Of a stretch of 39,983 nt of DNA, positions 1,918-22,521 are shown one piece after another. Source of the DNA: Clostridia bacterium. Its GTDB lineage: Bacteria > Bacillota > Clostridia > UBA1381 > UBA9506. Under the pieces are notes generated by a model that was given only the letters and a program-made list of their open reading frames with translations, did not search any database and had not been told where the DNA came from. The translations under genes were made by a program, and so were the position numbers. Position 1 is the first letter of the stretch. Each line of letters opens with the position of its first letter. The stretch covers positions 1 through 39,983 of the forward strand of contig JAZSOJ010000153.1 of NCBI GenBank assembly GCA_045536855.1. Reading direction: 5' to 3'.

Positions 1918-3096
1918 TTATAAATCAAAGGTTGCAGTTGTTTCCCCGTCGATTGACCCTATTTTTGACCCCTTGAGCCAGTTTTCCACATGTTTCGCAA
2001 GCTGGGTGTGGCTCTGTCTCTCTCGCTGTTCCGTCAGGTGGGCATAGATGCGCATAATCATCTGCTGATCAGCGTGCCCGACCCACTTCATTGCTGTTTT
2101 TATGTCCACACCTGCATCGTAGAGCATAGTAACATAGCTGTGCCGCAGATCGTGTGGTCTGATGGTGCATTCTCTCCACGGCGGAAGCGTGCCGCCGGAA
2201 GCAAGAATAGCTTTGTGAGCCTTGGTGCGCCCATACCATCTGCGATGGCAACCGTTAATAAGTGTCTCCAAGTAGACAATGTAACTCTCCCATTTTCTGT
2301 GGAAAGCCGTCTCGCTCATGATGCCGCCGTTTTCGTCCTGCAAAACACCCCCAGAAACGCCTTGCAAAGCGGTTTTTAGCGGCTCGATGATGGGCACAGA
2401 CCTAATACCAGCCGCCGTCTTTGGAAGTGATAAAACCGGGCGATTTCCGTTGTATATGACTCCTTTTGTAACGTTGATACAGTTTTTTTGCAGATCTATG
2501 TCCGAAGCTGTAAGCGCCAAAACCTCACCACGGCGCAAACCAGCGTAGAGCATGATCATAACGGCAAGAGCCATGTCATGGTGTCCAACTGATCGGTGGA
2601 TAAGCTGCCGCTCATCATCTGTAATGGCTCTGTGCGTACCGCTGACAGCCTCCGGCGGGCGTGATCCATAGCACGGATTGGTGAGGATGACCCTGTCATG
2701 CACGGCGGCGGTGAATATACTATCAATAGTCATTTTAAATTTTTTCACGGAAGAAGAACTTTTCCCACGCATTGAATTAAACAGCTGTTGGATGTCGGTT
2801 GTTGTGATATCACGCATTCGGCGAGTACCAATAACATCAATGGCTCGGTTGACGATGCTTACATAAGCGTTGTAAGTGCGGTCTGAGCAGCCGTCTTTAT
2901 ACGTCTCGATCCATTGAATAGCGTAGGCTCCAAAGGTAACGCCGAGTGCCTGCTCACGCAAACCGCTCTCCAACTCTCTCCTGTAGACATCCCGTTTTGC
3001 GTTTGCTATCGCTTGCGTGGCTCCGTAAAAGTCTTTGCCTTTATACCGAACACGGTATCGCCCGTCTTTTCTTTTTTTATACGTTGCTTTTGGCAT
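1918..3096 (-). CDS. int: tyrosine site-specific integrase
   Basis: 392 aa. Arg box LRRGEVLAL and C-terminal HDLRHSYVTMLYDAGVDIKTAMKWVGHADQQMIMRIYAHL (R..HxxR..Y pattern). Abuts the tRNA fragment. Confidence 0.92.
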   Translation of the reverse strand: MPKATYKKRKDGRYRVRYKGKDFYGATQAIANAKRDVYRRELESGLREQALGVTFGAYAIQWIETYKDGCSDRTYNAYVSIVNRAIDVIGTRRMRDITTTDIQQLFNSMRGKSSSSVKKFKMTIDSIFTAAVHDRVILTNPCYGSRPPEAVSGTHRAITDDERQLIHRSVGHHDMALAVMIMLYAGLRRGEVLALTASDIDLQKNCINVTKGVIYNGNRPVLSLPKTAAGIRSVPIIEPLKTALQGVSGGVLQDENGGIMSETAFHRKWESYIVYLETLINGCHRRWYGRTKAHKAILASGGTLPPWRECTIRPHDLRHSYVTMLYDAGVDIKTAMKWVGHADQQMIMRIYAHLTEQRERQSHTQLAKHVENWLKGSKIGSIDGETTATFDL

Positions 3097-5198: not shown

Positions 5199-5549
5199 TC
5201 AGACCCCCCTTTTATCTAGCTCCTGTTGCAATATCCGCAGGATCATGGCCTCCAACTCGTTTTCGTCCTGCGGGGCATCATCCAGCGGGAATTGCAGCCT
5301 TACCACGTCATCGCCCTGCGGCGGTGGCGTTTCGTTTTTGACGACCACATCCATGGGCACCCTGCCCAGAAGGTAGTCGGTAGAAACGTTGAACGTATCA
5401 GCGATTCTTGCGAGGGTTTCAAGATCCGGTTGACGCTTCCCACCCTCCCAAGAAGCAATTGCCGCTTGTGATACTCCCAAAACATCCGCTATTGCCGTTT
5501 GGTTCATCTTGAGCGACTTTCGTAGTTGCTTAAAGGCATCAGAAAACAT
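5199..5549 (-). CDS. CI-like XRE-family repressor
   Basis: HTH MNQTAIADVLGVSQAAIASWEGGKRQPDLETLARIADTFNVSTDYLLG. Divergent from a Cro-like gene across an AT-rich switch region. Confidence 0.85.
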   Translation of the reverse strand: MFSDAFKQLRKSLKMNQTAIADVLGVSQAAIASWEGGKRQPDLETLARIADTFNVSTDYLLGRVPMDVVVKNETPPPQGDDVVRLQFPLDDAPQDENELEAMILRILQQELDKRGV

Positions 5550-12030: not shown

Positions 12031-12846
12031 GTGGAAAGAAGGGCACCCAAACAGGTGATACGCCTGTTCAATGACAATTTTCAGAACTACAAGCGGTACA
12101 ACGTACCCAAAGCCCAGCTGGTGATTGCTGACATCCCCTATAACATCGGGCGCAACTTCTACGGCAGCAACCCCATGTGGTACAAAGGCGGCGACAGCAA
12201 AAACGGTGAAAGCAAGCTGGCAGGGAAAGCAGCATTCAATAGCGATTTCAATTTCAACATCGTGGAATATTTCCACTTCTGCAACCGTCTTTTAAAACCC
12301 GAACCCAAGCAGAGCAACGGCAGAGGCAAGAGCAGCGATGCCCCCTGCATGATCGTCTTTTGCAGCTTTGAGCAGCTGCAAACGGTGATAGAGACCGCCA
12401 AACAGTACGGTTTCGCCAATCATATCCCGCTGGTGTTCGTTAAGAACTATTCGCCGCAGGTGCTGAAAGCCAATATGCGCATCTGTGGAGCCACCGAATA
12501 TGGCCTTGTACTCTACCGTGGCAGGCTGCCCAAATTCCGAAACGGTGGGCATATGGTGTTCAACTGGTTTGAGTGGAAGCGGGACAGCACCAAGGAATAT
12601 CCCAAAATCCACCCGGCACAAAAGCCTGTATCGCTGCTGAAACGGCTGATCGAAATCTTCACCGATCCGGGGGATGTGGTGATTGACCCATGCGCCGGAA
12701 GTGGCTCCACGCTGAGGGCTGCCATGGAAAGCGGACGATCCGCATACGGGTTTGAAATCAGCCGGGATTTCTACCGGCAGGCGCAAGAAAAAATGCTTGC
12801 CGTGGATCATACTCAGGTGTCTATGTTTTCAGTTTTGGAGGGATAA
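12031..12846 (+). CDS. N6-adenine/N4-cytosine DNA methyltransferase (beta class)
   Basis: Catalytic VIADIPYNIG (DPPY-type) lies N-terminal to the AdoMet motif VIDPCAGSGSTLRAA; HPAQKPVSLLKRLI. GTG start. Confidence 0.88.
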   Translation: MERRAPKQVIRLFNDNFQNYKRYNVPKAQLVIADIPYNIGRNFYGSNPMWYKGGDSKNGESKLAGKAAFNSDFNFNIVEYFHFCNRLLKPEPKQSNGRGKSSDAPCMIVFCSFEQLQTVIETAKQYGFANHIPLVFVKNYSPQVLKANMRICGATEYGLVLYRGRLPKFRNGGHMVFNWFEWKRDSTKEYPKIHPAQKPVSLLKRLIEIFTDPGDVVIDPCAGSGSTLRAAMESGRSAYGFEISRDFYRQAQEKMLAVDHTQVSMFSVLEG

Positions 12847-16913: not shown

Positions 16914-17444
16914 ATGAACCCGGCAAAGGCTTTTCTTTTGGATTACCGCCATTCGCTGCTGAATCTGGAACGCCATGTGCGGGAATACAACCGCCTTTCC
17001 AGCCAATATGACAATTTGCAAGCCGCATGGGATAGGGCAACCAGAGCAACCAGCAGCCTGACAGCCATCCGGGTTTCCGGCACGCCCAACCATGATAGCA
17101 TGGCCAATGCCGTCATGGATATCATCCAGCTGGAACAGAAGCACGAAGCAGCCAAAGAGCTGTATGAGCAGTACAAGGGCAACGCCGATGGTACGCTGGA
17201 CTGGCTGCTGGAGGATATGCAGCGGCTTGCCGATGTTGGCAAGAGCCGTTTGGAGGCCATCAGCCAGATACAGGAGCAGCGGCAGCAGTTGGTTCTTTTT
17301 TACCGCTATTTCCTGCCCTATATGTCGTTTGTGAAGATCGCCGAAGAAATCACCCGGCTCACCGGCAAGCATTGCGGCGAAGATAACGTGTACAAACTGC
17401 ATGGAAAGGCACTTGCAGAATTGCGCCGCATCATCGGCGAATAA
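16914..17444 (+). CDS. sigma-70 region-4-like late transcription activator (ArpU/RinA/DUF1492 class)
   Basis: C-terminal LVLFYRYFLPYMSFVKIAEEI...VYKLHGKALAELRRI resembles a region-4 HTH. Last regulator-like gene before the late genes. Start uncertain because ATG 16914 has no clear SD. Confidence 0.5.
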   Translation: MNPAKAFLLDYRHSLLNLERHVREYNRLSSQYDNLQAAWDRATRATSSLTAIRVSGTPNHDSMANAVMDIIQLEQKHEAAKELYEQYKGNADGTLDWLLEDMQRLADVGKSRLEAISQIQEQRQQLVLFYRYFLPYMSFVKIAEEITRLTGKHCGEDNVYKLHGKALAELRRIIGE

Positions 17445-17445
17445 A

Positions 17446-17476
17446 AAGACCGGGGAGTTATTCCCCGGCTTTTTTC
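17446..17476. terminator. bidirectional intrinsic terminator
   Basis: CCGGGGA (17450-17456) pairs with TCCCCGG (17462-17468), 5-nt loop. An A-run lies on the left and TTTTTT on the right. Confidence 0.8.
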
Positions 17477-17735
17477 AATCATCCGTATGGTATGAATCAT
17501 AGAACGCTTGCAGCGCAGGTGTGATGCCACCGTCGAAAATCCCGTTGGGGCTTCTGTCCCTCTCGATAGTCTCAACGATAGCACGCAGGATGAACCCTTG
17601 CATGGATTCCCCCATTGACGAAGCGTGCCTCTTCACCAGATCCTTCACGCCCTGCGGGGTGGTGATGGAAATCCTGTCGTAGTGGTTGCGTACATAGGTA
17701 TTGACCGCTTTTTGCTGTGCTTTGGTGGTTGCCAT
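17475..17735 (-). CDS. ribbon-helix-helix (Arc/CopG-like) DNA-binding protein
   Basis: ATG 17735 sits 9 nt after GGAGGG. MATTKAQQKAVNTYVRNHYDRISITTPQGVKDLVKRHASSMGESMQGFILRAIVETIERDR. It is the only real minus-strand gene between 5.6 and 38.8 kb. Confidence 0.7.
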   Translation of the reverse strand: MATTKAQQKAVNTYVRNHYDRISITTPQGVKDLVKRHASSMGESMQGFILRAIVETIERDRSPNGIFDGGITPALQAFYDSYHTDD

Positions 17736-17756
17736 ATGTATATCCCTCCCCGATTC

Positions 17757-17787
17757 ATTATAGGCCACAAATATATTTACATAAATA
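17757..17787 (-). promoter_or_regulatory. leftward promoter plus operator O1
   Basis: On the minus strand: TTTATG (17785-17780), 17 nt, TATAAT (17762-17757). The palindromic site TATTTACATAAATA (17774-17787) overlaps the -35. Confidence 0.55.
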
Positions 17788-17821
17788 GATAATTTGGTAT
17801 GAAACTTTGCCGTTTTGTAAA

Positions 17822-17850
17822 TTGATATATTTATGTAAATATAATATAAT
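17822..17850 (+). promoter_or_regulatory. rightward near-consensus promoter plus operator O2
   Basis: TTGATA (17822-17827), 17 nt, TATAAT (17845-17850). TATTTATGTAAATA (17828-17841), the exact reverse complement of O1, fills the spacer. Confidence 0.65.
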
Positions 17851-18005
17851 TCAAACTGTCAGGAGGGGCGGTAAAGCCCCCCGGGCGTAAGAGGATAAAA
17901 CAGGATGCGGTTAGCCCCGCCCACCTTACGAGGTTCAAGCGGCAAGCACGATGCGAAAGGCAACCTACTTACGCCACACTTCAAAGCAAGAAAGGGGAAC
18001 CCGCA

Positions 18006-18275
18006 ATGAGTACCTACGAACTGACCGCCACCGCCACCGAGCTGATGGAACTGAAGCGCATGCGTGAAGAGCTGGATGCCGAGATCGCCTCTCTGGAGGA
18101 TCAGATCAAAGCCCACATGGGCAACACCGAGCAGGTGACCGCCGGAGCCTTCAAGATCAGCTGGAAGACCGTCACCAGCAGCCGGGTGGACACCACCGCC
18201 CTGAAGAAGGCCATGCCGGAGCTGGCAGCCCAGTACACCAAGACCACCACCAGCCGCCGGTTCACCATTAACTGA
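18006..18275 (+). CDS. hypothetical coiled-coil protein
   Basis: RBS AAAGGGGA; 89 aa; N-terminal heptad-like ELMELKRMREELDAEIASLEDQIKAHM. Confidence 0.6.
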   Translation: MSTYELTATATELMELKRMREELDAEIASLEDQIKAHMGNTEQVTAGAFKISWKTVTSSRVDTTALKKAMPELAAQYTKTTTSRRFTIN

Positions 18276-18322
18276 TAGCAATGACCGCCGGGGGAGCAAT
18301 CCCCCGGCAGAAAGGACAACGT

Positions 18323-18589
18323 ATGAAAAGAGAATATGACGAGCTTGTTGATAAGAATTGTAAAAAGTCAAAGATTATCGGAAAATACGCTTTCATTACA
18401 GACAAAGAAAGCATTTACTATCGAGAATGGGGCAGAATTATTGACTATGATGGAGAAGCGTATTATATAGCGATTGCCGACGGTGCAGACAGTTTCCCGA
18501 TGTTCGACAGAGATCAATTCAAAGTCCCGCAAAGACAATTCTTGCGGTATCACGCTGACCTTATCAGAGAAAGGAACGCCATTATATAA
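18323..18589 (+). CDS. hypothetical protein (AT-richer insert)
   Basis: ATG 18323 follows AAAGGA. Visibly lower GC than its neighbours. Bracketed by GC hairpins at 18287-18308 and 18593-18610. Confidence 0.5.
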   Translation: MKREYDELVDKNCKKSKIIGKYAFITDKESIYYREWGRIIDYDGEAYYIAIADGADSFPMFDRDQFKVPQRQFLRYHADLIRERNAII

Positions 18590-18640
18590 CCACCCGCCCC
18601 GCACGGGGCGGCTGATCCCCGGGAGAAGGAGGCCCACCCC

Positions 18641-18919
18641 ATGATCACCACCCAATTCGTTTATCAGTTCGTCGGCGGCCCGTTAAATGGTCAGACCCTG
18701 ACCCATGAACAGGCCGAGGCCATCTCCATCGGGGAAAGCCCCAACTACACGCTGGAGCGTGCCATGGGGCGGCTGGTGCCCCGTGCGGAGCTGGATGAGC
18801 AGCCCCGGATTCCCGGCTATGTCGGCCCTATGTGGGACGGCACCCGAAACACCTCATTCGGCCTTGTGGGCGTGATCCGCTACGAGACCCAAGAGGTATA
18901 CAACACCCTGAGCAATTGA
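18641..18919 (+). CDS. hypothetical protein
   Basis: RBS GAAGGAGG; 92 aa. Confidence 0.55.
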   Translation: MITTQFVYQFVGGPLNGQTLTHEQAEAISIGESPNYTLERAMGRLVPRAELDEQPRIPGYVGPMWDGTRNTSFGLVGVIRYETQEVYNTLSN

Positions 18920-18962
18920 CCGATCCCCGCCCCGGAGGTGACGAGGGCAGAAAGGAACTGTC

Positions 18963-19877
18963 ATGATGTACTACGAAATCAACGAAGAAACCGCCCGGGT
19001 ATCCCATGATATGATGAGCATGCGGGATTATGTGCCCGGCAGCGCAACCGCCCGGTATCGTGCTTCTGTGGATAAGGCCGCCGAGCTGGTGGAGCAGCAG
19101 AAAAAGCAGGTAAGCGAGTTTTACCACGGCAAGCTGGATCACCTGCTGGACAGGTACGCCAAGACCCTTGCGGAGTACCTGAACCGGGAAAACCAAATCG
19201 GCACCATGTGCCCGTCCGTGATGATCGCCGGTGCCAGCAATTTCCCCGTGCACAAGAAGCAAAAGCAGGTTGCCGCATGGGATCGCAACCGGGAGAACTT
19301 TGAAAAGGCAGAAGCCATCCTGCGCCAGATCCGCAGCGTTGGCACCGGCCCCATCGACTTTGCCGACCCCCATGCCGAAGAAATGCTGACCGAGCGCATC
19401 GCCCTGCTGCAATCCGAGCTGGACGCATTCAAAGAGGCAAACGCCTACTATCGCAAGCACAAGACGCTGGAAGGCTGCCCCGGCATCAGCGAACGCCACC
19501 GGGAATGGCTGACCCGTCCCGGCGTGTTCCATGCGGGCGATGGCACGCCCTTGGAGCTGTACAAAGCCCCGTATACTTCTTACCACCTGACCAGCATCCG
19601 CACCCGGCTGAAAGCCGCCAAGCAGCGTCTGGAAGAGTACCACAACCGCCAGCAAAAGGCACAGCAGGGCGGCGACGATCTGAAATTCGACGGCGGCGAG
19701 ATCGTGCGCAATTCCGAGCTGAACCGGCTGCAAATCATCTTTGATGACATCCCGGACGATGACACCCGCACCGCCTTGAAGCGCAATGGTTTCCGCTGGT
19801 CGCCCTCCAACAAGGCATGGCAGCGGCAACTAACCGAAGCCGCCGAACGGGCAGCCCTGAGCATTGTTCGACAGTAA
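18963..19877 (+). CDS. DUF3560-like protein
   Basis: C-terminal FDGGEIVRNSELNRLQIIFDDIPDDDTRTALKRNGFRWSPSNKAWQRQ matches my memory of the DUF3560 motif (...LK..GFRWS....W). Needs a profile search. Confidence 0.5.
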   Translation: MMYYEINEETARVSHDMMSMRDYVPGSATARYRASVDKAAELVEQQKKQVSEFYHGKLDHLLDRYAKTLAEYLNRENQIGTMCPSVMIAGASNFPVHKKQKQVAAWDRNRENFEKAEAILRQIRSVGTGPIDFADPHAEEMLTERIALLQSELDAFKEANAYYRKHKTLEGCPGISERHREWLTRPGVFHAGDGTPLELYKAPYTSYHLTSIRTRLKAAKQRLEEYHNRQQKAQQGGDDLKFDGGEIVRNSELNRLQIIFDDIPDDDTRTALKRNGFRWSPSNKAWQRQLTEAAERAALSIVRQ

Positions 19878-19947
19878 CGCCGGCAGCAGGAATCCCCGCC
19901 ACGGGCGGCGAATAACTCAGGAAAGACAAACGAAGGAGGATGACACC

Positions 19948-20157
19948 ATGTATTGGAGCATTGAAAGCTGGGGCAGCGACTATCCCCCTGTAAACGCCGA
20001 TGAGATCATCTCAGCAGCCAACGCTGTGATTGATAGGTATGCCAAATCCAACCCCGATTACACCGAAGCCGAGCTTCGGGATTACAGCGACTATCTGTGG
20101 GAAAACTTTTGCATTTACGGTGAGATTGACGGTGTCGTTGCAGAATACGAAGAATAA
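19948..20157 (+). CDS. small, strongly acidic hypothetical protein (69 aa)
   Basis: ATG 19948 follows GAAGGAGGA. 16 D/E versus 3 K/R by direct count. Confidence 0.55.
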   Translation: MYWSIESWGSDYPPVNADEIISAANAVIDRYAKSNPDYTEAELRDYSDYLWENFCIYGEIDGVVAEYEE

Positions 20158-20178
20158 GCAAAAGCAGGGGATGGCATC

Positions 20179-20454
20179 ATGAATTATCCAAGAATTGGCG
20201 ATACAGTACCATTTGGCGGCAAAAGTTATGTATTGATTTCAGAACCTTGCCCGATGGAAGATGTATATATTAAAGGTGTATGGGCATCCTCTGTTTTCTT
20301 TGCGGAGGGTTACGAAGCGGGAGAAGAACCGACAGGGGAACCGTATGTCATCAGTTGGGATGTACTGCCGGAATATGCTGGTATCGGAGCAAATGACCCA
20401 TTTGTAACGTGGGAAATGATGTGCGCATGGGATCACCCTTCGCACGTTGAATAG
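20179..20454 (+). CDS. small acidic hypothetical protein (91 aa)
   Basis: 15 D/E versus 3 K/R by direct count. A strong terminator follows. Confidence 0.55.
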   Translation: MNYPRIGDTVPFGGKSYVLISEPCPMEDVYIKGVWASSVFFAEGYEAGEEPTGEPYVISWDVLPEYAGIGANDPFVTWEMMCAWDHPSHVE

Positions 20455-20461
20455 GTAAAAG

Positions 20462-20487
20462 CAGGGGAGAAAGTCCCCTGTTTTTTT
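20462..20487 (+). terminator. intrinsic terminator closing the accessory operon
   Basis: CAGGGGA-GAAAG-TCCCCTG followed by TTTTTTT. Confidence 0.85.
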
Positions 20488-20640
20488 ATTAAGTGCCACT
20501 TTTTCATGCAACTCAATATCAAAAATCGCCACTTTTTTGATGTTTTACCCCTCAAATTTGCATATTTGCTGCAAAAAACTATAACTGTACTTAGAATTTA
20601 TCACATCAACTTATAAAAAAATCGAAAAAAGTTGCAAGAT

Positions 20641-20660
20641 TACAGTCTTTTACAGTCTTT
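20641..20660 (+). repeat. perfect tandem TACAGTCTTT x2
   Basis: 20641-20650 and 20651-20660 are identical. Lies in the AT-rich spacer upstream of the late genes. Confidence 0.8.
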
Positions 20661-20685
20661 TTGTGATAACATACTACCGTCAAAA

Positions 20686-20717
20686 GCGACCACCCACCCG
20701 GGCAGGTCGCTTTTTTT
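20686..20717 (+). terminator. strong intrinsic terminator abutting tRNA-Gly
   Basis: GCGACC...GGTCGC stem with inner CCC/GGG pairs, then T7 (20711-20717). Confidence 0.8.
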
Positions 20718-20719
20718 GT

Positions 20720-20794
20720 GCATCCGTAGCGTAGTTGGCAGCGTGCCAGCCTTCCAAGCTGGCGGGGTGGGTTCAAGCCCCATCGGATGCTCCA
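20720..20794 (+). tRNA. tRNA-Gly (anticodon UCC), CCA encoded, phage-borne
   Basis: Acceptor GCATCCG/CGGATGC. Anticodon stem CCAGC/GCTGG with loop CTTCCAA. T arm GTGGG-TTCAAGC-CCCAT. Weak D stem (2 G-U pairs). Confidence 0.85.
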
Positions 20795-20891: not shown

Positions 20892-21638
20892 GTGCAGATC
20901 ATCATGAAAAAGGTGTCGGAGCTGACACCGTATGACAAGAACGCTAAGAAGCATGATGCTGCACAGATCGCAAATGTGGCGCAGTCCATCAGCGAGATGG
21001 GATGGAAACAACCCATCGTAATCGATGCCAATGGCGTGGTGATCGTCGGGCATTGCCGTCTGCTGGCTGCCAAGAAGCTCAAGCAGAAGGAAGTGCCCTG
21101 CGTGGTGGCTGATGATCTGACCCCCGAGCAGATCAAGAAGTACCGCATTTTGGACAACAAGCTGGCAGAATCTCCGTGGGATCTCGACCTGCTGGCAGAG
21201 GATGCCGACGGGCTGGATTTCAGCGGGTATGATCTCGATCTGGGTCTGGATGTACAATCCGGGGGGGGTGCTACCAACGATGACATGTACACCTCGAAAA
21301 TTTCCACGCCCCAGTACCAAGTGACGGATGTGAAGCCGGAAATCTCCGCTCTCGTCGATCAAACCAAGACAGATGCCCTGCTGCTGGATATCGAAGGGGC
21401 TCAGGTGCCCGAAGAAATCAAACGGTTTCTCCAATTGGCTGCATATCGGCATTTGGTTTTCGATTATCACAACATCGCCGAATACTATGCCCATGCTCCG
21501 CAGGAAGTGCAGGAGCTGATGGAGCGTTCCGCATTGGTCATCATCGACTATAACGATGCCATTGCCGGTGGGTATGTAAAGCTGAAAAGCGAAATCGATC
21601 AGATGTTCGAGGAGGCTTTCGCCGCTGATGAGGAATGA
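20892..21638 (+). CDS. ParB N-terminal (ParB/Srx nuclease-like) domain protein with an unassigned C-terminal domain
   Basis: GTG 20892 sits 5 nt after AAAGGAGGGG. LTPYDKNAKKH...GWKQPIVIDANGVVIVGHCRLLAAKKL is the ParB-N signature (GxxRxxA). Confidence 0.75.
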   Translation: MQIIMKKVSELTPYDKNAKKHDAAQIANVAQSISEMGWKQPIVIDANGVVIVGHCRLLAAKKLKQKEVPCVVADDLTPEQIKKYRILDNKLAESPWDLDLLAEDADGLDFSGYDLDLGLDVQSGGGATNDDMYTSKISTPQYQVTDVKPEISALVDQTKTDALLLDIEGAQVPEEIKRFLQLAAYRHLVFDYHNIAEYYAHAPQEVQELMERSALVIIDYNDAIAGGYVKLKSEIDQMFEEAFAADEE

Positions 21639-22521
21639 TTTTTGTGCGTTCATTCTCTCACACGGCAGGGCGAACAACATAAAGACCCTCAAAGCCTTGC
21701 AGAAAGGCCATTACACAGGTCGCTGGTATATTGTTATCGATAACGAGGATGACCAGGAGGAAGAATACCGAAAGCGTTATCCCGGCCATGTGTTGCAGTT
21801 TGACAAGCTCGCCGTAAGCAAAACCTTCGATACAGCCGATACGGAGGAAAACCGCCGTACCATCGTATACGCCCGAAACGCCTGTTTCGATCTTGCAAGG
21901 GAAGTGGGTTGCAAGTACTTTTTGGAGCTTGACGACGATTATAATGTGTTCGAGCATAAAGTGAGTATCGGCGGAAAGCTGAAAGGGATCCCATGCACGG
22001 ATCTGGATAGACTTTTCACCGCTATGGTCGAATATCTGGAAAGCAGCGGAGCGGTTACGATTGCATTTGCGCAAGGTGGTGACTTCATTGGTGGAAAGGA
22101 TGGTACTGCCGCCAAGAAGGCGCTGCTGCGCAAGGCGATGAACACTTTCTTTTGCTCGGTAGATCGTCCTTTCCAATTCGTTGGTAGAATCAACGAGGAT
22201 GTGAACACCTACACCCGTATGGGTCAGATCGGAAAACTTGTTCTCACGGTCACCGATGTATCCATAACGCAGACCACCACCCAAAAGAATGCCGGCGGCA
22301 TGAGTGGCGTATATATCGACGGTGGAACATACCTCAAGAGCTTCTACAGCGTTTTGTTTTCTCCGTCCTGCGTAACCATCAATGCCATGGGCGACACCCA
22401 TAAGCGCATCCATCACAATGTGCATTGGCGATATTGTGCCGCCCAAATCCTTAACGAGAGATACAAAAAAGGAGGTACCCCATGCCCCGTGGCACACACC
22501 CCAACAGCCTCGCCAACCTGA
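21628..22521 (+). CDS. GT-A-fold glycosyltransferase-like protein (soluble)
   Basis: FILSHGR (beta1), WYIVIDNEDD (beta2 plus acidic), ARNACFDLAREVGCKYFLELDDDY (GT2-like N..A..G..flDDD DxD motif), late NAGGMSGVY. No TM helix. Overlaps the ParB-like gene end and the TerS start. Confidence 0.55.
   Translation: MRNDFCAFILSHGRANNIKTLKALQKGHYTGRWYIVIDNEDDQEEEYRKRYPGHVLQFDKLAVSKTFDTADTEENRRTIVYARNACFDLAREVGCKYFLELDDDYNVFEHKVSIGGKLKGIPCTDLDRLFTAMVEYLESSGAVTIAFAQGGDFIGGKDGTAAKKALLRKAMNTFFCSVDRPFQFVGRINEDVNTYTRMGQIGKLVLTVTDVSITQTTTQKNAGGMSGVYIDGGTYLKSFYSVLFSPSCVTINAMGDTHKRIHHNVHWRYCAAQILNERYKKGGTPCPVAHTPTASPT

Follow-up and report, generated by a model that had tools for sequence, protein, structure and literature searches.

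A ribbon-helix-helix-gated accessory operon in a temperate phage of gut Clostridia: a putative establishment or anti-restriction unit

What would a temperate phage do with a small operon that is closed off by terminators on both sides and faces a single, divergently transcribed repressor gene? The question is raised by positions 17446-20487 of contig JAZSOJ010000153.1 (Clostridia bacterium, assembly GCA_045536855.1); the whole stretch analyzed, 39,983 nucleotides (nt) long and referred to here as the window, is a temperate siphophage or prophage of gut Clostridia with a GC content of about 0.54. The answer that we favor, to which we assign a probability of roughly 0.6 on the basis of sequence comparison, is that the unit is a burst-then-shut-off establishment or anti-restriction operon, gated by a ribbon-helix-helix (RHH) protein and providing counter-defense at the time of entry.

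The regulator is an 86-amino-acid (aa) protein encoded on the minus strand (17475-17735). As a single sequence it gives only weak RHH_5 and Arc matches in Pfam, and among the PHROGs it matches phrog_13890 (1.8e-11) and the Arc-like phrog_582 (0.0027). When 15 family members are combined into a profile, P22 Arc in the Protein Data Bank (PDB) is matched with an E value of 1.4e-5 over profile positions 16-60, a match that spans the strand and both helices, and pArc, DUF1778 and CopG chains are matched as well. By this profile evidence the protein is an Arc-like RHH protein with its core at about residues 16-60, and among the window's called genes it is the only one with an RHH-profile match. The gene is monocistronic and runs directly into a bidirectional intrinsic terminator (17443-17476; an 8-bp GC-rich stem with T-runs on either strand, at -18.1 and -18.6 kcal/mol and z -4.5 and -5.0 for the two strands), which serves a putative late-regulator gene on the plus strand as well as the minus-strand RHH gene. 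Residues 62-86 (17475-17551) form a 25-residue C-terminal tail, SPNGIFDGGITPALQAFYDSYHTDD, that is missing from 64-65-aa relatives with the same N-terminal arm and could be a partner or ligand site.

Between the RHH gene and the operon lies a 270-bp spacer (17736-18005) with a GC content of 0.43, as compared with 0.54 for the window, and with two promoters placed back to back. The rightward one, TTGATA-17-TATAAT (17822-17850, plus strand), is a near-consensus sigma-70 promoter (11/12 positions in the promoter scan), and relatives carry TTGACA-17-TATAAT at the equivalent position. The leftward one, TTTATG-17-TATAAT (17757-17785, minus strand), belongs to the RHH gene and was read directly from the sequence; its -10 element is perfect and its -35 element is weak (3/6), which is why the scan did not list it. 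Superimposed on these promoters are two exact 14-bp sites: putative operator O1, TATTTACATAAATA (17774-17787), overlaps the leftward -35 element, and O2, TATTTATGTAAATA (17828-17841), its exact reverse complement, fills the gap between the -35 and -10 elements of the rightward promoter. Each site is the core of a 24-nt arm of an inverted repeat (17772-17795 and 17820-17843), and with 54 bp from center to center, about five helical turns, both sites face the same side of the helix. No TATTTACATAAATA site other than O1 and O2 occurs in the 40-kb window with two or fewer mismatches, and none of 100 shuffles reached four TATTTACATAAATA matches; because the operators are found nowhere else in the window, the RHH protein would be a local gate and not a global switch. 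Rightward transcription would pass through a 5' leader of about 149 nt (17857-18005, plus strand, read from the sequence) into six open reading frames (ORFs; 18006-20454) and end at an intrinsic terminator (20462-20487, plus strand; -17.7 kcal/mol, z -5.5, followed by T7) whose hairpin is terminator-like on the minus strand also. These are the elements that the original prediction, made from the letters of the sequence, had described (a minus-strand gene with an RHH-type N-terminus, an AT-rich spacer with back-to-back promoters, a 14-bp site and its exact reverse complement, a leader of about 150 nt, six ORFs and flanking terminators, with two very acidic small proteins among the products), and we recovered all of them, the leftward promoter with the weak -35 element just mentioned.

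A sister prophage (locus L003) shows what happens to the gate when the rest of the unit is held nearly constant. Its orf1 and orf4 are 98.9% and 97% identical to those of the window, and the two elements are colinear except at sharp module borders; the segment corresponding to window positions 17476-17971 (the RHH gene, the spacer and most of the leader) is swapped for an unrelated 69-aa RHH gene (26% identity) with an operator pair of its own, TTCTATACGCCCATAGA and TTCTATGGGCGTATAGAA, of which the TTCTATGGGCGTATAGAA copy abuts TATAAT. Judged from this comparison, regulator and operator are exchanged together between near-identical phages. L003 also has an extra 83-aa gene (L003 4326-4577, minus strand) downstream of the alternative RHH gene; it has no Pfam match and no counterpart in the window.

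The same pairing is seen at greater distance. In L004 and L005 a homologous RHH gene (31.7% identity, E 5e-6) diverges from an operon with a 76%-identical orf4 at an unrelated genome position, with ACAATTGT-type operators that abut TATAAT. The layout of an RHH gene facing an orf4 operon is found as well in Faecalibacterium phage FP_Toutatis, L013, L014, L016, L023 and L040, and it persists down to 44% orf4 identity; in each of these six a private operator is repeated two to five times, with one copy inside TTGACA-N17-TATAAT. In all, more than a dozen RHH variants beyond that of L003 have private operators, present in two to five copies of which one falls within the rightward promoter, and closer relatives of the window's RHH protein on IMG/VR contigs (59-66% identity) are accompanied by a ATATCTGCGCAGATA operator and different cargo. 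Of the 27 distinct RHH-type intergenic regions that precede an orf1 homologue, 26 have a repeated 9-mer overlapping the best promoter (any 9-mer repeat occurs in 36% of mononucleotide shuffles). When pairs of RHH proteins were grouped by identity, operator repeats were shared by 5/8 pairs at 80% identity or above, by 9/50 pairs between 50% and 80%, and by 0/293 pairs below 50%; sharing tracks RHH identity and not orf1 identity, as would be expected of a repressor and its operator. (These surveys use gene calls and families from our own heuristic codon log-odds caller and BLAST clustering.) The proposed architecture, an insulated operon gated by a solitary RHH protein through palindromes, is thus strongly supported by the covariation of regulator and operator, with binding itself predicted, and the combination of RHH gene, palindrome and variable cargo is a recurrent design in related elements.

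Two further features of these intergenic regions deserve a description of their own. A common inverted pair, TTGCACAA…TTGTGCAA(AA), flanks one copy of the RHH-specific operator in FP_Toutatis (L001 2181-2400), L013 (3430-3560), L040 (2299-2450) and L016 (3663-3850), and might serve a second conserved factor or the leftward promoter. The leaders of the window and of L003 (L003 4965-5150) begin alike, with TGTCAGGAGGGG, and agree again over roughly the last 35 nt, the middle being different, and the leaders of relatives fall into two length classes (about 50 nt and about 120-180 nt). The window's leader folds no better than its shuffles (z -0.56), and Rfam searches over the window at gathering and E-value thresholds returned the tRNA only and no match for the leader, so that a riboswitch or other structured element there finds no support.

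The constant element behind these changing gates is the first gene of the operon, orf1 (18006-18275, plus strand; 89 aa; phrog_434, 1.8e-18). It has 1046 relatives, nearly all of them standalone 89-aa proteins. Over residues 24-88 it shares 35-48% identity with the C-terminal domain of nucleases of the YqaJ/lambda-exonuclease type from phages and plasmids of Firmicutes; by this homology orf1 is a standalone copy of that domain, and it may bind DNA ends or a partner protein. Its structural model consists of a long helix (residues 3-38) and a small sheet. We considered and rejected an assignment to Mu Gam/Sipho_Gp157, which scored 18.2 bits in Pfam against a cut-off of 27, over the N-terminal helix only, with phrog_253 at 0.018 and no fold match in the PDB.

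We surveyed the neighborhood of orf1 homologues at 89 loci with gene calls, 77 of which are informative for the upstream gene. That gene is small and on the opposite strand in 67 of the 77; 33 upstream genes encode RHH proteins, and most others fall into two Cro/XRE-type helix-turn-helix (HTH) families (HTH_26, 6e-16). Of 58 distinct intergenic regions in front of orf1 homologues, 44 have a promoter with a match of at least 10/12. Since either an RHH or an HTH gene can stand upstream of a constant orf1, the type of repressor appears to be interchangeable while orf1 stays first. Directly after orf1, ArdC (ArdcN 6.7e-28 plus MPTase-PolyVal 4e-37) is found at 26 of the 89 loci, and orf1-led operons with ArdC also occur in conjugative-type islands that have no phage repressor. 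ArdC is often followed in turn by an 80-90-aa ORF and a small serine resolvase. The smallest settings of this kind that we describe are islands of about 2.5 kb between chromosomal genes (L092-L099; for example, L092 4608-7359), in the order divergent 72-aa RHH gene, orf1 homologue, ArdC, 86-92-aa ORF and small serine resolvase, each island type having its own triple operator (GGTACCAGTAT or CATACT-N7-AGTATG).

The largest product of the operon, orf4 (18963-19877, plus strand; 304 aa), is labeled either 'DUF3560' or 'primase' in databases. In its confident AF2 model (predicted local distance difference test [pLDDT] score 88.6), a long helical domain (residues 1-235) is joined to a small alpha/beta C-terminal domain, which carries a conserved GFRWSP..AWQRQ motif. 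The original prediction had called it DUF3560-like, a name that agrees with nr and UniProt, where relatives of 57-58% identity are called 'DUF3560', but not with Pfam, where an hmmscan of orf4 and four relatives gave no DUF3560 match at E values up to 0.1. Searches against PDB sequences found no match, and in a viral library orf4 matched its own family and a segment of one protein of at least 1115 aa only. The family is large: we count about 4600 relatives, and a separate scan of one-genome-per-species Clostridia gave 553 (an alignment-based genome scan; a single-sequence orf4 scan of IMG/VR returned nothing).

Conjugation genes (relaxase, MobC, T4CP or VirB4) lie within 6 kb of an orf4 homologue at 39 of 80 genome loci. 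At nine loci the homologue directly follows ArdA (PF07275, 1.6e-29), in the order ParB, (family f18), methyltransferase fragment, ArdA, orf4, DUF3801, T4CP; at ten it directly precedes DarA_C (1e-31), in the order VirB4, NlpC, …, orf4, DarA_C, MobC, relaxase. At 29 loci the homologous segment is part of an ORF of at least 700 aa, mostly of more than 1100 aa, and in one 1713-aa polyvalent protein the orf4 module occupies the C-terminal part of a chain that also includes ArdA, ArdcN, metallopeptidase, LPD25, YodL and DUF4316. The adjacency or fusion of ArdA, ArdC and DarA_C to relatives of orf1 and orf4 is the best pointer to function that we have, and it favors protection or establishment of incoming DNA; the tie between the cargo and anti-restriction proteins consists of adjacency and fusion, and no cargo ORF is itself homologous to such a protein. 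Two smaller observations touch the same gene blocks. Other proteins encoded there (L020 548-1033 and L012 877-1803), among them a DnaJ-domain protein and a 308-aa protein, end in the short C-terminal motif of orf4 (…LKAAG.KW…K.W…), which suggests that a small C-terminal domain is common to several cargo families. A family of the Toutatis type (f36) matches ArdC-N at a pairwise E value of 0.029, a lead rather than a result.

The remaining four ORFs, all on the plus strand, are small. The 88-aa orf2 (18323-18589) has a GC content of 0.386 and no Pfam or PHROGs family match. The 92-aa orf3 (18641-18919) belongs to a family whose members are either standalone (about 80-120 aa) or embedded in proteins of 430-2228 aa, with 27 of 131 representatives at least 400 aa long; the large proteins have no match among PDB sequences, and a phmmer comparison of them with ArdA, ArdC, DarA_C and the polyvalent protein gave one weak match, to the ArdA tail. 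The two very acidic products are orf5 (19948-20157; 69 aa, pI 4.05, net charge -13, GC 0.48) and orf6 (20179-20454; 91 aa, pI 4.11, net charge -12, GC 0.457). A search of a phage collection gave no match for orf3, orf5 or orf6, and orf6 is an ORFan, with no relative among 5.8 billion proteins.

Base composition and comparison with the sister prophage divide the operon along the same lines. The GC content is about 0.60 for orf1, orf3 and orf4, and the low-GC ORFs (orf2, orf5 and orf6; 0.39-0.48) are exactly the parts that are replaced or missing in L003, where the slot of orf2 is taken by an unrelated 61-aa ORF and orf5 and orf6 are absent. The joints between them also recur. An inter-cistronic GC hairpin followed by the ribosome-binding site (RBS) motif GGCAGAAAGGA lies between orf1 and orf2 (18285-18316, plus strand; -21.8 kcal/mol, z -4.3), a second junction of this kind lies upstream of orf4 (18925-18956, plus strand), and weaker versions follow orf2 and orf4. 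The exact GGCAGAAAGGA 11-mer occurs at these two junctions only in the window, and it recurs in the orf4 blocks of L003, L006, L007, L022 and L024. The homology between the window and L003 stops exactly at the 18285-18316 junction, which suggests that cassettes are exchanged at such hairpin-plus-RBS joints. The full junction unit reads as a GC hairpin (CCGCC..CCGG-loop-CCGGG), then CAGAAAGGA, then a start codon, and it is found between unrelated small ORFs in L004 (5073-5107 and 5437-5470) and in L006 (2310-2345, 2525-2560, 2935-2975 and 3225-3262).

From these parts we infer a scheme that includes RHH binding, burst-then-shut-off kinetics and a biochemical function for all of the cargo. The dimeric Arc-like RHH protein would bind the two identical 14-bp palindromes, with O2, between the -35 and -10 elements, gating the six-gene operon and O1, on the -35 element of the weaker RHH promoter, controlling the repressor gene. 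When the DNA enters a cell free of RHH protein, host RNA polymerase would fire the strong promoter at once and produce a burst of cargo; as RHH protein accumulates it would occupy both operators, turning the operon off and throttling its own synthesis. Repression by the accumulated protein would then keep the unit low in the lysogen. The cargo would most likely be an establishment or anti-restriction set that shields incoming DNA, in which orf2, orf3, orf5 and orf6 would be exchangeable small cassettes joined at hairpin-plus-RBS junctions.

The surroundings of the unit are those of a temperate phage genome. Gene calls and family matches place an integrase at 1918-3096 and a cI-like repressor at 5199-5549 (both minus strand); from the latter, left to right, follow genes for Sak, an HNH nuclease, SSB, DnaD-like and DnaB-like proteins, and then an N6/N4 methyltransferase, RusA, YopX and a MazG-like protein, with no recognized primase among the phage's genes. 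The unit had been placed between a late-activator gene and the late operon. Its position holds; the activator label of the gene to the left (16938-17444, plus strand), for which we prefer 'putative late regulator', has as its basis a weak phrog_36 match (6e-6) and position only, and on the right a tRNA-Gly gene, a ParB-like gene and a TAGT glycosyltransferase gene intervene before terS, which is followed by terL, portal and structural genes. The tRNA-Gly gene (anticodon TCC; 20720-20794; ARAGORN, and Rfam at 60.6 bits) lies between the operon terminator and the ParB-like gene, and the L003 segment that aligns across it is 95% identical to the window. The ParB_N-like gene (phrog_620, 2.8e-50) and the TAGT gene after it (PF20691, 1.7e-42) occupy 20892-22521, directly upstream of terS, and may be a DNA-hypermodification or packaging-associated pair. 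TAGT stands for TET-associated glycosyltransferase; no TET/JBP dioxygenase was seen among the ORFs scanned, and the sole methyltransferase found is the one of N6/N4 type (12031-12846).

The region 3' of the operon terminator (20488-20719) is very AT-rich (GC 0.34) and carries a direct repeat, GCCACTTTTT, at 20495 and 20528 (33 bp apart), and a tandem TTACAGTCTT at 20640-20659; these repeats are candidate late-promoter or activator sites, or a packaging signal. The location of the unit just upstream of the packaging genes is shared, in inverted orientation, by FP_Toutatis, and in L004 and L006 the orf4 block sits at the lysis-integrase junction. One might speculate that a terS-proximal position means early entry.

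What else could the unit be? An accessory cassette of the lysogenic-conversion type (a moron), expressed from the prophage for the benefit of the lysogen (for example, through superinfection exclusion or cell physiology) and set to a low steady level by the RHH protein, strikes us as unlikely, even with much of the anatomy on its side. An own promoter and bracketing terminators are classic moron features; the lysis-integrase junction at which the orf4 block lies elsewhere, in one case with a YodL gene in the block, is a typical moron hot spot; the low-GC orf2, orf5 and orf6 look recently acquired; and negative autoregulation fits constant low expression. Yet the ties of orf1 and orf4 are to ArdC, ArdA, DarA_C and the polyvalent proteins of transferring elements, whose role is at entry rather than in maintenance, an operator inside a near-consensus promoter implies strong repression once the regulator is present, and no membrane or exclusion-type protein is evident in the Pfam and PHROGs scans. 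The annotation of orf4 suggests instead an accessory operon for replication or recombination, with orf4 as a primase-like or replisome-associated protein and orf1 as partner of a Sak/exonuclease system: orf4 matches phrog_19458, annotated 'primase', at 2.5e-109, FP_Toutatis gp40 (L001 5992-6912) and the homologue in Clostridium phage Maintenon (L002 5992-6915) bear the same label, the phage encodes DnaD-like and DnaB-like proteins and no recognized primase, and orf1 is related to the C-terminal domain of YqaJ/lambda exonuclease. We give this reading little credence, because neither a Toprim nor an AEP or zinc-binding fold can be seen in the orf4 model, which matches nothing in the PDB at E < 0.4, Pfam and NCBIfam contain no primase match to the protein, and the gene belongs to a unit gated on its own, away from the replication module; its relatives are fused to ArdA and ArdC and not to helicases or polymerases, and in other phages the block adjoins lysis or integrase genes. 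We therefore reject primase as a function for orf4, and from the model and the sequence searches the label in phrog_19458, Toutatis and Maintenon appears to be an error that has spread.

The original prediction had read the module as serving either counter-defense or an antirepressor, and the second option, a P22 immI-type second immunity region in which the RHH protein holds down an antirepressor of the cI-like repressor and so controls induction or heteroimmune superinfection, has fared badly. The topology is certainly alike (a divergent RHH gene, operators over back-to-back promoters and an insulated operon), and the phage has the requisite cI-like repressor and integrase; set against this are a single RHH protein, a first operon gene that is not Arc-like (orf1 has the long helix and sheet described above and no RHH-profile match), six ORFs without an Ant, KilAC or Bro-N domain in Pfam or PHROGs, and the occurrence of the orf1-led operon, with ArdC, in conjugative-type islands that lack a phage repressor. 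We judge it very improbable. Weak matches of RHH family members to TacA, ParD, HicB and CopG antitoxin models might suggest that the protein serves an addiction system of the toxin-antitoxin or partition type, as antitoxin or regulator, a reading to which we give almost no weight: nothing is co-transcribed with the RHH gene, whose terminator follows directly, no toxin or ParA family match was found in Pfam, PHROGs or PADLOC, and the operators control a divergent six-gene operon.

The counter-defense option, for its part, has gained the ArdC genes that follow orf1, the ArdA and DarA_C genes beside orf4 and the fusions, all of it indirect, with no ORF matching a characterized anti-defense protein, and several observations weigh against an establishment or anti-restriction operon. 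Comparison of the six ORFs with Pfam, NCBIfam, PADLOC and PHROGs, with no search using dedicated anti-defense hidden Markov models, gave nothing specific to anti-defense, and the PADLOC defense-system scan had no match for any ORF. In Foldseek searches of the PDB the orf1 model found nothing with E < 0.9 and the orf4 model no structural match (best E 0.44), the Gam-like hint in orf1 is below threshold, and orf2, orf5 and orf6 have no informative relatives in our searches; orf6 was not called as a gene by the codon model and may not be one. The associations come mostly from conjugative elements, so that the genes could serve DNA transfer or establishment instead of anti-restriction, and near-duplicate loci inflate some of the survey counts. 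Finally, neither the purpose of the leader nor the production of RHH protein in the lysogen is accounted for by our reading.

If an establishment or anti-restriction role is nonetheless correct, the orf1 protein, the DUF3560-like orf4, orf3 and the two acidic mini-proteins become anti-restriction or establishment candidates for gut Clostridia, in which phage counter-defense is, to our knowledge, almost unexplored. The analysis also corrects the 'primase' annotation found across PHROGs and GenBank. A small divergent RHH or HTH gene, an operator in a consensus promoter and orf1 in first place make a signature with which further cargo can be mined. The more than a dozen natural RHH-operator pairs, which by sequence would differ in specificity on a common scaffold, are a resource that could help in learning how RHH proteins recognize DNA and in designing orthogonal repressors. 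More tentatively, and with odds that we would put clearly below even, orf1 and the DUF3560-like orf4 could be core parts of a widespread and undescribed establishment or anti-restriction system that, in gut Clostridia, temperate phages would share with conjugative elements and with tiny islands bearing a resolvase. Its layout would be that of a plug-and-play array in which any small repressor could be swapped along with its matching operator, orf1 stays first and cassettes are swapped at hairpin-plus-RBS junctions. Such an array would amount to integron-like modularity without an integrase, and orf1, as a free nuclease C-terminal domain, might be a decoy or an end-binding inhibitor of host nucleases.

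How does the unit compare with systems already known? In acr-aca loci, anti-CRISPR operons are autorepressed by a small Aca protein that binds inverted repeats in the promoter. The present unit resembles them in its strong host-type promoter with inverted-repeat operators, its small, dedicated and apparently interchangeable repressor (RHH or Cro/XRE HTH), its variable small-ORF cargo and, as we read it, its logic of burst followed by shut-off. It differs in that the regulator is divergent, on the opposite strand upstream, and not the last gene of the operon, in that the cargo has no match to a known Acr (no Acr library was searched), and in that orf1 has no counterpart in acr loci. With P22 immI (Mnt, Arc and Ant) it shares an Arc-type RHH protein, divergent overlapping promoters with palindromic operators and insulation from the main lysis-lysogeny circuit, as against one RHH protein instead of the immI pair of a divergent Mnt-like repressor and an Arc-like one encoded first in the operon, no antirepressor domain, 14-bp perfect palindromes inverted 54 bp apart, and a module that is found outside phages also. 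On conjugative plasmids, repressors of the ArdK, ArdR or KorA type control the ardA and ardC genes of the leading (establishment) region; relatives of the cargo studied here neighbor or are fused to ArdC, ArdA and DarA_C, and negative feedback would likewise overshoot on entry into a naive cell, but here a temperate phage carries the unit, with a putative late regulator on one side and packaging genes on the other, and orf1 and orf4 are uncharacterized proteins.

Two looser parallels complete the picture. The polyvalent proteins of phages and conjugative elements combine LPD, ArdC-N, MPTase and DarA domains; the orf4 module occurs in one such protein of 1713 aa and the orf3 domain inside large proteins, whereas the modules of the window are separate small genes of one operon and not parts of one giant polypeptide. 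Phage morons have in common with the unit an own promoter, an own terminator, a deviant GC content in some cassettes and a known hot-spot location, and what sets the unit apart from them is its dedicated repressor and operator pair and its multi-cassette array with conserved hairpin-plus-RBS junctions. Repressor-gated anti-defense operons are thus known from acr-aca loci and from ArdK- or KorA-controlled plasmid ard genes; what appears to be new here is the orf1-led family, its plug-in RHH or HTH gates, a DUF3560-like module as phage cargo and the junction elements that join the cassettes.

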